Shown here piece after piece: positions 11,762-32,125 of a DNA stretch of 32,125 nucleotides. The notes under the pieces are model-generated. The model searched no databases. It saw nothing but the letters and a program-made list of their open reading frames with translations, and was not told the DNA's origin. The DNA lies in the IMG/VR virus record IMGVR_UViG_3300017747_000630, positions 1 to 32,125 of that record. One strand, written 5' to 3'. The position numbers were made by a program, and so were the translations under genes. The stretch's first letter is position 1, and each line of letters begins with the position of its first letter. The DNA is from a virus (Duplodnaviria; Caudoviricetes).

Positions 11762-11962
11762 TTACCCGTTAGTAGTTACAATAGTTCTCGGTGCATTCGT
11801 GTTTACTACGGTAGATGTTTCTTGGTTAACGATGCTTCCTACTCCTTGTGCTTGTAGTGTTCCATCGCAGCATTCTGCCTTATACGTTCCGTCATCGCAT
11901 AGACATCCACGTCTACCACCTTTGGGAGATGTGTTACTTAATGTTTTTTGTTTTTTTGCCAT
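11762..11962 (-). CDS. Small Cys-rich head-module protein (66 aa)
   Basis: MAKKQK...TSPKGGRRGCLCDDGTYKAECCDGTLQAQG. Confidence 0.72.
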   Translation of the reverse strand: MAKKQKTLSNTSPKGGRRGCLCDDGTYKAECCDGTLQAQGVGSIVNQETSTVVNTNAPRTIVTTNG

Positions 11963-28172: not shown

Positions 28173-28426
28173 AGGTCTATTATTAGTTTTAAATCATCAT
28201 TCATTCGTGTTAACCTAAGATTCTCTTCGTGTAGTTCAAGTAACTTTCGTTCTAAAACACGATTACTTGCTTCTAAAATAGTCAACACTTCACGTACTTG
28301 ATCTAAGTCTGCTACTTGCTTGTCCAGTTCTGCTTTCTTTTTAGGTTCGTATTTAGACCTAAAGAGTATCTTATTAGCAGTTAAGCTAAGATTTAAGTAT
28401 GCTAAGTTTAATTTTACTAAGTCCAT
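28169..28426 (-). CDS. Hypothetical coiled-coil protein
   Basis: ORF track; coupled to the helicase stop. Confidence 0.65.
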   Translation of the reverse strand: MDLVKLNLAYLNLSLTANKILFRSKYEPKKKAELDKQVADLDQVREVLTILEASNRVLERKLLELHEENLRLTRMNDDLKLIIDL

Positions 28427-29337
28427 CAGAAAGGTAATTTATCGTCAAAGTTAGTATTTATTGATAATGTCTTAGGTTCGTGTTTACCTGGTTTAATTGG
28501 ATTCACATTTTCAATGGTAAAACCTAATCCGTGATTATAATAAAACATTAAAGGATCATTACTCATAGTCTGACCGCCACCCGTATCTTTATCTTTTATT
28601 TTATCTATATCTATCAAAGTAAAATATTGCATTGATTCAAGTTTAGTTAATCTGTGAATATTAATCCAATCATCGCACATATTAGCAAAGATTTTTCCAC
28701 CTTCAGCCATAGATTTATTAGGAATCATTGGTTGACCTTCCCACATATGCTTTGCTGGATATTCACTTGCTTTCCTTCCTGAAGCTGTAACCGGGTGCAT
28801 ACTTAAATAAACCGTCTTTCTGTTAATCTTACACCATCGTTTTAAACTACGAATAAATTTAATGTTGCTCTCGTAATTCATATCGTGGTCTAATTGATTA
28901 AATGGATCAATAAAATAACCATCCGCTGGTATTGCTTCAAATTCTTTTAGCAAATTTTCAGGTTTATACTGCTGCCTATTATCAATAAAGAAAAAATAAT
29001 CTTCTAAGTAATCATTATAGAAATCTATTTCTTCGTGTGATAAGTTCTTAAACGGAATACCTGAATACATCTGTATCAAATCACGCAGCACTTGACCTTT
29101 AGAATTCTCATCCATCCATATACCCCATTTTAATTTATGGTTAGTAGTTAACGCTAACATATACCAAGTCATAAAATAAGTTTTTCCGACATTGTCTCCG
29201 CCAAGAATTCCGTTATACTGACCTATCTTAAATCTTAAATAGTCATCCAGCTTACAATCTATGCCAAGCCCTTGTGCTATTTTCCCGTCTTTGTAATCGT
29301 GCAGATATCTTCTCGCACTTCCGTTACTTAATACCAT
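28426..29337 (-). CDS. DnaB-like (SF4) replicative helicase, ATPase domain only
   Basis: GGDNVGKT Walker A, FIDPFN Walker B, SMHP, KIKD..TGG; downstream of the initiator. Confidence 0.8.
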   Translation of the reverse strand: MVLSNGSARRYLHDYKDGKIAQGLGIDCKLDDYLRFKIGQYNGILGGDNVGKTYFMTWYMLALTTNHKLKWGIWMDENSKGQVLRDLIQMYSGIPFKNLSHEEIDFYNDYLEDYFFFIDNRQQYKPENLLKEFEAIPADGYFIDPFNQLDHDMNYESNIKFIRSLKRWCKINRKTVYLSMHPVTASGRKASEYPAKHMWEGQPMIPNKSMAEGGKIFANMCDDWINIHRLTKLESMQYFTLIDIDKIKDKDTGGGQTMSNDPLMFYYNHGLGFTIENVNPIKPGKHEPKTLSINTNFDDKLPF

Positions 29338-29989
29338 ATTGCTCTTGTAATTTTTTAGCACGTTCAACTAATGGATCAACAACAGTAGGTTGTTTAGGTT
29401 GTTTAGGTAAAAATGGTATTGTATTATTTAAAGTTGATTTCCAATTTACAATTTTAATCATTTTACCATTCTTCTCCTTACACCAATCATTAACTAACCA
29501 ACTTTCATATTTTATTTTTAATGCTTCAATAGATACATCTTCAACAACAGAAATACCATAAGCAACAAACTCTTCAGATGAAGGAACTTTGTTTATTTGT
29601 TTAATTGTTTCTTGTTTATTTATACTAACAGTGCTTTGACTGTGCTTTGTACTGTGCTTTGACAGTGCTTTGTCTAGTGCTTTGGTAGGTGCTTTGGTAT
29701 TTTTTACAATAGCAACTATGTTGGATGAGTATTGATTTTTGCTAGTTTCAACCATCTCTATAAATCCAAAATCCACAAGATCATTTAAACCTGCTGAGTA
29801 TGTTCTCCAGTTCTTAACTCCTATGGCTTCCATAACCATCTGCGAAGGAAATCCAAATTTATTTTTCCATCCAAGTCTATTACAATGCTCAATAGAAAAA
29901 TAATATATTGCATAGTGTATTGGTTTAACCTTATCAGGATTTTCAAATGCCCAATCACAAAAGTTTCTACTTAGTTCGTATCCGTTCAT
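29324..29989 (-). CDS. Replication initiator protein (lambda O/DnaD-like) carrying the origin
   Basis: N-terminal wHTH-like region, internal iterons, C-terminal NWKS motif; precedes the helicase. Confidence 0.78.
   Translation of the reverse strand: MNGYELSRNFCDWAFENPDKVKPIHYAIYYFSIEHCNRLGWKNKFGFPSQMVMEAIGVKNWRTYSAGLNDLVDFGFIEMVETSKNQYSSNIVAIVKNTKAPTKALDKALSKHSTKHSQSTVSINKQETIKQINKVPSSEEFVAYGISVVEDVSIEALKIKYESWLVNDWCKEKNGKMIKIVNWKSTLNNTIPFLPKQPKQPTVVDPLVERAKKLQEQYGIK
29589..29696. repeat. Replication origin: six GTGCTTTG iterons plus adjacent AT-rich tract
   Basis: GTGCTTTG at 29631, 29642, 29654, 29665, 29677 and 29689 (11-12 bp period); TTGTTT-rich tract at 29589-29622. Confidence 0.85.
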
Positions 29990-30200: not shown

Positions 30201-30291
30201 AAAAAACCCCATCGAATCCACAGCTTCCTACTTCTGCTTCATCGACAGGGTCGAATAAGTTTTTAAGTTCTTATAATGTAGGAAGAGAACT
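30201..30291 (-). ncRNA. Structured leader/sRNA with two hairpins, complementary loops and a terminator U-tract
   Basis: P1 AGTTCT/AGAACT, loop containing CTTCCTAC; P2 CCCTGTCGA/TCGATGGGG plus GCAG/CTGT, loop containing GTAGGAAG; then TTTTTT. Confidence 0.7.
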
Positions 30292-30297
30292 ATTACA

Positions 30298-30305
30298 CAA
30301 ATATA
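30298..30305 (-). promoter_or_regulatory. Bacteroidota sigma70-type promoter -7 element for the replication operon
   Basis: TATATTTG immediately upstream of the structured leader. Confidence 0.72.
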
Positions 30306-30327
30306 ACTATTCTATTTGACTTTTGTT

Positions 30328-30567
30328 TTAAAACGGAAGATCAGTTTCGTTCTTATTATTCACCTTATCGCTAAAGTTCTCCATCTTTTTAAATGGTTCT
30401 TGAATGCTACCAGCGAAGAATTTACCTGCTTTACCTTCTTTGATCCATAGGCTAACAGAATAGTCCTTACCTTCTACGTTTACAGTTCCTGTATAGTCAG
30501 GCTGTGTTTCTTTCTCTTTCTTGTTGTTCTTAAAGATTACAACTTTGTTCGTGTTGTCGTACTGCAT
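30328..30567 (-). CDS. Putative single-stranded DNA-binding protein (DUF736-like)
   Basis: QPDYTG...VSLW.K...GKFF; acidic DLPF tail; in the recombination operon. Confidence 0.65.
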   Translation of the reverse strand: MQYDNTNKVVIFKNNKKEKETQPDYTGTVNVEGKDYSVSLWIKEGKAGKFFAGSIQEPFKKMENFSDKVNNKNETDLPF

Positions 30568-30568
30568 T

Positions 30569-30751
30569 TTACTTTTGTTTTTGATTAATAAATTCTTTAC
30601 TTAATTCTTGTAAGTCATTTCTAAGCATTTGATTTTCTTTTATTAGCTTTTTGTTTTCTCTTTCTAATCTACAAAAATCGTGATAAAATTCTTTTGCCCT
30701 TAGTTTTCTTTTTTCAAATTCATTCTCTAATATTTCAAGTATGTTTGTCAT
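30569..30751 (-). CDS. Hypothetical coiled-coil protein
   Basis: ORF track. Confidence 0.6.
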   Translation of the reverse strand: MTNILEILENEFEKRKLRAKEFYHDFCRLERENKKLIKENQMLRNDLQELSKEFINQKQK

Positions 30752-31601: not shown

Positions 31602-32125
31602 ATCGCTTCAAGTTGTTTAGATTGGTCTTCTGTTAGTTCATATCCTTTAACGGCTTTAAGAAACTGCTCTTTTGTTATTTCGCCTTTAAATACCATATTC
31701 ATTCCCGTTTCAAAACGTTCATTAGGGAATATCTTTTTCTTGGTAGTCTCTCCTACTGCATCCGTGTCTTTGTCCGTAACCAAACCAAGTATCTGAGAGA
31801 TGCCGTAACGTCTAAAGTAAGTAAGTTGGCTTCCGTAAGACTGGAAGATGTTTTGACCTTTTAACTCTACGTCAGGCATTAAACGTAACGATGTTTCTAA
31901 AGTTTCTCCGCTTTCTACGTGAAATACTACAGTTACTAAATAGTCAACTCCTTCTTTGTGGTTAGTTAGTTGGGTAAATCCTAATCCGTGTTTCTGCATT
32001 AAAGGATTAATCACGTTTAGAATAGCTGGAAGGTCTGCATACTGATAAGCAAAGTTTCCGCTTCCCGCTGTTGTACCTTTAAAGATTACTGGCACTTCTT
32101 GTTGGAACTCAGCCAACGCTTTAAA
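31598..32125 (-). CDS. ERF-family single-strand annealing protein (5' end at 1..51)
   Basis: YQYADL, GLGFTQ, HVESGE, QSYGSQLTYFRRY...LGL...DTD signature. Confidence 0.9.
   Translation of the reverse strand, partial: FKALAEFQQEVPVIFKGTTAGSGNFAYQYADLPAILNVINPLMQKHGLGFTQLTNHKEGVDYLVTVVFHVESGETLETSLRLMPDVELKGQNIFQSYGSQLTYFRRYGISQILGLVTDKDTDAVGETTKKKIFPNERFETGMNMVFKGEITKEQFLKAVKGYELTEDQSKQLEAI
32087..32125. repeat. Terminal overlap, right copy (matches 1-39)
   Basis: 36/39 identity with the window start. Confidence 0.93.

Follow-up and report, generated by a model that had tools for sequence, protein, structure and literature searches.

What does a short RNA that folds between a promoter and the replication genes of a small phage do for that phage? 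We addressed this question for a minus-strand locus at 30201-30305 of a 32,125-nt viral DNA, the whole of which is called the window here. A sequence-only reading had described this locus as a structured leader with two hairpins whose loops pair, and had proposed that it acts as an attenuator or small RNA. Judged by gene content and end overlap, the window is a nearly complete small tailed-phage genome. The N-terminus of Erf is encoded at both ends (1-51 and 32087-32125, with 3 synonymous differences in 39 nt), and the window reads as a near-complete circular genome put together from variants. The genes recognisable with PHROGs encode terminase, portal, tape-measure, endolysin, Erf, exonuclease, SSB, helicase, NinG and a sigma-like factor. 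As the earlier reading had claimed, neither an integrase nor a CI-type repressor was recognised among the 61 window ORFs scanned (36 in PHROGs, 47 in Pfam), most of which had no family. The promoter box, by its consensus, and relatives suggest a host among the Bacteroidota.

All features listed for the leader were found in place on the minus strand, where it runs from 30305 to 30201. It opens with a predicted promoter box, TATATTTG (30305-30298), which we take to be a Bacteroidota-type -7 box through the consensus TAnnTTTG. Homologues picked by protein and cultured Flavobacteriia phages have this same box in the corresponding position; taken alone, it occurs in the window no more often than expected (38 times, against 43). 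Hairpin P1, placed by the earlier reading just past the promoter with a pairing loop, is present at 30266-30291, with 6 bp (30291-30286 paired with 30271-30266) around a 14-nt loop, and is weak by itself (-3.0 kcal/mol). The 5' side of the P1 loop holds X, the 8-nt pairing segment CUUCCUAC (30285-30278). The 6 nt after X (30272-30277) form an unpaired A-rich remainder, which measures 5 nt in 73, 6 nt in 13 and 4 nt in one of 87 family sequences and is predicted to span the loop-loop helix.

An A/U-rich linker (30252-30265; 13-18 nt across the family) leads to hairpin P2 (30206-30251, -18.1 kcal/mol), a predicted intrinsic terminator. Its lower stem (30251-30242 with 30215-30206) has 10 bp, including the bottom A-U and two G-U pairs, rather than the 9 bp first described; the internal loop UGAA/GGAU (30241-30238/30219-30216), the 4-bp upper stem GCAG/CUGU and the U6 tract (30206-30201) were all present as described. 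In the 10-nt loop of P2, two unpaired purines (AA) are followed on the 3' side by X', GUAGGAAG (30231-30224), the 8-nt complement of X. The perfect complementarity claimed between the loops (30278-30285 and 30224-30231) was found and covaries in homologues, and as a free duplex X:X' has an energy of -10.2 kcal/mol. By prediction, P2 has the G+C-closed stem directly before a U-tract that is expected of an intrinsic terminator; the hairpin was absent from the output of a simple terminator scan. The internal loop was also compared with kink-turn and SECIS-core modules, whose consensus is tandem G-A pairs beside a 3-nt bulge. The 4x4 loop is symmetric, compatible with tandem G-A pairs and without a 3-nt bulge, and other modules replace it in divergent members.

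Folded by itself, the element is modest (-24.1 kcal/mol, z -1.83), with 7 of 200 shuffles equally good, and a loop match of at least 8 nt arose by chance in 79 of 20,000 loop shuffles. A plus-strand fold was weaker (z -1.34) and was rejected. We count the element as more than chance because the loops covary in homologues. The comparison with Rfam that the earlier reading had called for returned no match to the element: at gathering thresholds Rfam 15 gave 0 matches in the window, and in the element region, searched up to E 10, the best E was 0.26, with no family. The 20 homologous loci scanned gave 0 matches, and the 8 cultured-phage loci only a tRNA (E up to 0.5). The X and X' 8-mers recur only sporadically elsewhere in the window and in three whole cultured genomes; a third copy in the window, at 11835-11842 within a 76-aa ORF, is at chance level (0.89 expected).

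Homologues were collected with a search pattern that fixed the promoter box, the internal loop (UGAA, GAU) and the stem base and contained no loop letters; the columns fixed by the pattern were given no weight as conservation. In viral DNA the pattern matched at least 121 loci and at least 90 distinct sequences. Among the 90 distinct matches listed, 83 had a 5' region complementary to the P2 loop over 6-9 nt, and the other seven (L147, L171, L183, L190, L192, L222 and L260) were judged to be chance and excluded before alignment. The resulting alignment A1 comprised 87 sequences, namely the window, 82 of the 83 loop-matched sequences and four loci found by protein; L166, with a variant layout, and L283, which is the same as the window, also stood outside it. 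A separate scan for the exact 8-mer yielded 119 loci, mostly chance, with five family members among them (L039, L042, L050, L125 and L136).

The results showed that the loop-loop helix is kept while its letters change. In A1, 97.7% of its cells were paired and double-sided changes occurred at 7 of 8 pairs, and the whole structure scored 0.551, against 0.174 in shuffles and at most 0.079 with slid partners. The 87 sequences carry 24 different 8-mers, the commonest in 24 of them, and loops matched their own partner over 7-9 nt, whereas 552 non-own pairs averaged 3.9. To correct for kinship, a tree was built with the loop-loop columns left out; on it, 64 of 65 changes in X' coincided with a change in X (mean 16 and maximum 25 for deranged partners). 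Covariation of the 8-nt loops, the main check suggested by the earlier reading, was thus observed both in the alignment and on the tree. The pairing was nearly all Watson-Crick (676 of 696 cells, with 3 G-U), and changes in these columns were nearly always double, unlike in the terminator stem with its many wobbles; this could reflect strict selection, or else templated copying from one inverted repeat to the other. In the lower-stem columns, mostly outside the pattern, 398 of 522 cells were Watson-Crick, 123 were G-U and 0 were A-C, and this presence of G-U without A-C fixes the strand, indicating an RNA of the minus strand. All 5 aligned pairs of P1 showed double-sided changes, with 87% of cells paired in a region that is partly misaligned, and P2 was recovered unaided by RNAalifold. 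Three further positions of the U-tract, free in the pattern, were all T in 79 of 87 sequences. Judged by this comparative evidence, the leader is a real structured RNA whose loop-loop pairing is under selection.

A second set of homologues was selected by protein. An alignment of the initiator led to 79 metagenome loci, 75 of them with sufficient upstream DNA; these loci were not dereplicated, and L287, whose initiator is identical to that of the window, was excluded. A terminator-like hairpin with a loop match of at least 7 nt to the upstream 60 nt was found at 44 of the 75 (6.1 on average and at most 11 in shuffles), and the remaining 31 scored below 7 nt. There were 33 different 8-mers in these loci, and a few A/T-rich matches among the 44 are probably chance. 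Divergent members kept the layout with all else changed, the internal loop included, and have only the shape in common. At L004, L017, L018, L019 and L377 the P2 internal loop is exchanged for an AGUA/GAA module, presumably loop-E or sarcin-ricin-like, and this swap suggests selection for a non-canonical spacer, not for a sequence. A subgroup of loci (L004:2160-2190, L018:2120-2150, L279:2500-2520, L280:1040-1065, L288 and L291) carries the partly palindromic TAGTACTTA...TAGTAG in place of the promoter box TATATTTG; this type of box is perhaps read by another sigma factor or host. Near-identical flanks surround wholly different versions of the element in L021:356-460 and L022:1920-2030, and likewise in L372 and L378, indicating that the leader is exchanged as a cassette, sometimes together with the initiator.

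No cultured phage was found by blastn with the element, and cultured members were reached through proteins. Nine cultured-phage records were picked by initiator similarity, one per group, before their upstream DNA was viewed. In all eight records with Flavobacteriia hosts, the initiator gene is preceded by a promoter box, a match of 7-9 nt and a U-rich terminator-like hairpin: Polaribacter phage Danklef_1, Flavobacterium phages elemoA_7-9A, 11b, tooticki6-1 and FCOV-F14, Olleya phage Harreka_1, and Cellulophaga phages phi18:3 and phi13:2. The family model R1 detected seven of the eight at E <0.05, with phi18:3, whose element lies around positions 3183-3074 of NC_021794.1, scoring best (49.5 bits), and the elemoA element was detected by folding and complement search alone. 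The ninth record, Dulem virus 39, gave no match. Two copies per genome occur in L039, L166 and tooticki6-1, and the loops of each copy match only each other.

In cellular DNA, a search of 185,579 species genomes with the pattern gave 3 matches, each on a 1.6-6.5-kb contig of a metagenome-assembled genome, and the model matched in 1 of 151 genomes. A single relative of the initiator (L369) was found among 401 genomes, and it had no model match. The strict subfamily is thus nearly absent from cellular genomes, which argues against a common prophage element among those searched. Six RNA runs shared only 7-10% of the sequence words. Of the four examined further, all in the form of assembled contigs, the two true metatranscriptomes contained exact contigs on the ssb gene (30334-30665 and 30298-30574) and none on the element; such contigs show no starts, ends or strand, and this evidence is neutral, also as regards habitat.

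We then examined the genes around the element. Immediately upstream in the window lies the gene for the ssDNA-binding protein (SSB; 30328-30567, minus strand; PHROGs 18154 and 7364), the last of an Erf-exonuclease-SSB unit. This gene is co-oriented with the element, so transcripts arriving from upstream would also meet the leader. Past the element, the earlier reading had placed an initiator and a helicase. The helicase assignment was supported, with a DnaB-like or primase-helicase-type domain protein at 28426-29367 on the minus strand (PHROGs 18375, 239 and 19; E 1e-15 to 8e-7), but a 63-aa ORF (30184-29993, minus strand) comes first, starting 16 nt after the U-tract, and the 221-aa product of the gene at 29324-29989 (minus strand) is only a putative initiator. 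Homologues have unrelated small ORFs in the slot of the 63-aa ORF, or none. The element is single-copy in the window, where the other TATATTTG boxes, at 82, 1667 and 25890, run straight into start codons.

The position of the element was consistent among the 73 pattern-selected loci with full flanks, taken from the matches listed. Within the first three downstream ORFs, 64 of these 73 had an initiator-cluster gene, 56 had a helicase and 7 had neither, so the claimed position before replication genes holds for most of them. The first ATG lay 14-28 nt beyond the pattern end in 68 of 73 loci. On the upstream side, the nearest ORF was co-oriented in 67 of 68 loci and ended at most 21 nt from the promoter box in 53 of them. 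At L157, L169, L173, L188, L191, L197 and L200, other genes follow the element (for example what seem to be thymidylate-synthase-like, primase-like or methylase/helicase ORFs, labelled by eye), which suggests that other early units are gated as well.

The 221-aa protein had no Pfam or PHROG match, and its low-confidence structure model (pLDDT 64) gave no fold match. Its look-alikes in the Atlas include HTH_36 clusters, and proteins of the same slot and cluster match DUF6291, DUF1376 and Phg_2220_C, with GenBank relatives annotated as replication protein or DnaD-like. The gene itself holds six 8-mer repeats at 11-12-nt spacing; they lie at 29628-29696, resemble lambdoid origin iterons and mark a candidate origin, and repeats also occur in the gene in L002, L004 and Danklef_1. 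We call the protein a putative replication initiator because of its HTH_36 neighbours, the iteron-like repeats and a cluster with relatives annotated as replication or DnaD-like proteins. Elsewhere in the window, CACT immediately precedes the ATG of six genes (minus strand; 55, 1640, 6402, 23350, 23667 and 25871), often after an A-rich run, and could serve as a regulator site or as a context for strong translation initiation. A protein with a DnaA C-terminal HTH (83-502, PF08299) is a candidate transcription regulator, and DnaA-HTH genes are annotated upstream of the element also in Danklef_1, phi18:3, phi13:2 and tooticki6-1. A sigma-factor-like phage protein (24462-25022, phrog_1740) is a candidate late-gene activator.

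With about even confidence, we propose that the leader is a cis-acting, RNA-only transcription attenuator before the predicted initiator and helicase genes, in which the kissing helix of X and X' favours read-through. This reading was adopted because the guanidine-IV riboswitch has the same layout. Host RNA polymerase would start immediately past the promoter box, P1 would fold first and expose X, and X' would pair with X on emerging. Folding of truncated transcripts, computed at equilibrium and without pseudoknots, favoured X:X' in transcripts of 74-86 nt and the terminator once they reached 92 nt. The kissing helix would then hinder a long terminator that is probably slow to nucleate, because its 10-nt loop caps an upper stem of 4 bp that a non-canonical loop separates from the rest, and part of the polymerases would read through. 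The split between termination and read-through would be set kinetically, by pausing, polymerase speed, Mg2+ and temperature, and the gate would throttle or delay the synthesis of initiator and helicase as well as transcription across the origin in the initiator gene. Several points run counter to this attenuator. A fixed leak, without an input signal, could be attained by simpler means. The 7 of 73 listed loci with neither initiator nor helicase nearby, and the 31 of 75 protein-selected loci that scored below 7 nt, also weigh against it. By geometric reasoning, moreover, kissing on fully formed P2 is within reach of a 2-nt bridge in its loop and a linker of 13-18 nt, so the pairing could instead aid termination or stabilise a released RNA.

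Such a role, in which the kissing helix aids termination or compacts and protects a released RNA of ~90 nt that is itself the product (for example a decoy or sponge), seems to us unlikely, though worth weighing. Transcription would then reach the downstream genes through leak or with the help of a separate antitermination factor. Besides the geometry that permits kissing atop a complete P2, the full-length RNA folds preferentially into the complete terminator and the internal loop is retained as a non-canonical module; terminated phage leaders that act as RNAs are also described in the available parts of the reports on IsrK (PMC4825925) and StxS (PMC7547250). Against it, the wider family conserves no sequence able to act on a target, its divergent members sharing shape, and the tight link to replication-type genes (64 of the 73 loci listed) fits a role in cis. 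The released RNA might also act on its own leader. In this CI-like feedback, to which we give a little less credence, terminated RNAs would build up with genome copy number and free X' would capture nascent X in trans, blocking the kissing in cis, raising termination, and so capping replication or excluding superinfecting phages with the same 8-mer. The 8-mers indeed differ between close relatives (in 29 of 42 pairs with helicases 85-95% identical and in 5 of 18 pairs with at least 95% identity), as they do between tandem copies, and the pairing is almost purely Watson-Crick; P4, too, stops its own replication genes by RNA pairing (PMC4825925, as far as its available text goes). But X is no more variable than other stems (0.93 bits against 0.92-1.24), and a code in which one 8-mer serves 24 of 87 sequences and 20 of 276 8-mer pairs differ at a single position offers poor specificity. 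Intramolecular pairing should also beat pairing in trans, unless the released RNA is unable to kiss. A downstream target is lacking as well: among 57 downstream flanks, each spanning at most 1.5 kb, none contained the element's own 7-mer of X, where non-own 7-mers predict 1.1, and 5- and 6-mers stood at background. An apparent upstream excess of X (7 against 1.8 expected) was rejected, as it consisted of coding-sequence matches in a few related lineages. Opposite-strand TAnnTTTG boxes, the one antisense promoter type searched, occurred in 16 of 57 elements with 200 nt added, against 39 of 161 control stretches, with none in the element of the window. The same absence of a downstream target copy and of an antisense promoter excess, together with the lack of an Rfam C4 match, speaks against membership in the P4 CI or P1 C4 kind, of which the element had seemed reminiscent from sequence. 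The carrier-state or immunity role suggested with it also lost ground: the pairing letters are no more variable than the stems, and the element is present in 11b and tooticki6-1, whose complete annotations list no integrase or repressor (in Danklef_1, a 43-codon ORF is labelled integrase). Several of these cultured phages are propagated lytically. With equally low credence we entertain the broader idea that the terminated leader, as its own antisense regulator, is a widespread protein-free replication governor of Bacteroidota phages. If true, first transcripts would pass by kissing in cis and released leaders would later close the gate in trans, giving copy-number feedback and sequence-specific superinfection control without a repressor or a separate antisense gene.

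The switch could instead be triggered by a protein or small molecule, riboswitch-like or lambda N/nut-like, that binds the internal loop or the kissing junction, which we hold to be rather improbable. In favour of a trigger, the subfamily shows next to no variation in the UGAA/(G/U)GAU loop or in the bases at one end of the kissing helix, and the guanidine-IV architecture is ligand-driven. The search pattern itself, however, fixed UGAA and GAU, and members selected by protein or found in cultured phages have another module (for example AGUA/GAA) in place of the loop, or none. Moreover, no RNA-binding regulator was recognised among the 61 window ORFs, though most have no family, and the downstream genes are neither metabolic nor transport genes. 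A reading at the DNA level, with X and X' as inverted sites such as operator half-sites or initiator boxes, or with the fold acting in single-stranded DNA, is very improbable. The 8-mers do form a nearly wobble-free inverted repeat ~54 bp apart over the promoter-proximal region. They always lie in hairpin loops, however, recur only sporadically elsewhere in the window and in three whole cultured genomes, and differ in sequence from the iteron-like repeats of the initiator gene; the G-U-rich stem, promoter box and U-tract indicate one RNA strand. Binding sites for the initiator were rejected, since a single 8-mer core can accompany as many as five unrelated types of initiator N-terminus.

Returning to the attenuator, these findings indicate a real, widespread RNA family outside Rfam 15 that likely works like a ligand-free attenuator of the guanidine-IV type. 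Bacteroidota phages are abundant, and to our knowledge the timing of replication in those without a recognisable repressor or antiterminator is little understood. Placed at the head of the replication module in dozens of genomes from uncultured phages and in each of the eight cultured Flavobacteriia phages examined, which span several genera, the element may be a general control point overlooked by annotation. Pairing into a terminator's own loop had previously been tied to one ligand-sensing riboswitch; here it occurs in dozens of sequence variants without a fixed pocket. Because cultured phage-host pairs carry the element, for example phi18:3 on Cellulophaga baltica, the mechanism is directly testable, and the self-matched, mutually non-matching loop pairs are possible tunable terminators for Bacteroidota genetics.

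Among known systems, lambdoid pR-tR1 with N/nut, the HK022 put RNA, plasmid rep attenuation (pT181, pIP501) and the repZ pseudoknot offer comparisons. As in lambdoid and plasmid rep control, a terminator gate lies between a promoter and an origin-carrying initiator gene; unlike there, neither an N-like gene nor, in the element of the window, a distinct antisense RNA promoter of the TAnnTTTG type was recognised, and the regulatory pairing reaches into the terminator loop itself. The c4 antisense RNA of P1/P7 is a phage RNA with loops complementary to sites in its own leader. The leader here differs from c4 in having no match to Rfam, either in a search of the element up to E 10 or among 28 homologous loci, one pairing segment rather than two, no antirepressor (icd/ant) genes downstream, and Bacteroidota rather than Proteobacteria phages; the c4 family names (RF01695, c4-2, c4-a1b1) are those in the available parts of PMC2864571 and PMC5737381. 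In P4, with CI RNA, seqA and seqC, and in its relative IsrK of Gifsy-1, pairing of the leader RNA controls premature termination, according to the available text of PMC4825925. The likeness lies in promoter-proximal leader pairing before replication genes, with X in the P1 loop as a seqA-like upstream partner. CI, however, has targets on either side and acts in trans after processing, whereas here a single upstream partner lies within the same ~90 nt, its complement is in the terminator's own loop, and there is no seqC-like copy.

No description of the element was found in the literature, with thin coverage of subscription papers, or in the available parts of PMC2864571, PMC5737381 and PMC10690425. 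In the last of these (Fremin et al. 2023), the material available lists DNAVirus_1270 as 80 nt with 115 viral sequences and 6 covarying bases, upstream of Phg_2220_C and HTH_36 genes. Its size and downstream domains fit the leader, a likeness based on the supplement's description, where it is listed without a terminator call; the available text mentions a pseudoknot only for gp32 leaders. The family may thus already be listed there as an anonymous candidate (DNAVirus_1270, with DNAVirus_187 also named), without the loop-loop pairing or a function.

The guanidine-IV (mepA motif) riboswitch differs from the leader in several respects. Here the wider family has no conserved ligand-binding bases around the kissing helix and no fixed ligand pocket, the pairing letters change freely, Rfam gives no match, and phage replication genes lie downstream, where the riboswitch has mepA or guanidine exporters. 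The two nevertheless share their architecture, with two hairpins of which the 5' loop pairs with the loop of an intrinsic terminator, here through a predicted, covarying 8-bp helix. In the riboswitch, as the available parts of PMC11611296 and PMC10907184 describe it, the kissing loop hinders the terminator stem and competes with its completion during transcription, and elongating P2 disfavours the kissing loop. The guanidine-IV riboswitch is thus a closer structural precedent for the leader than P4 CI or P1 C4.
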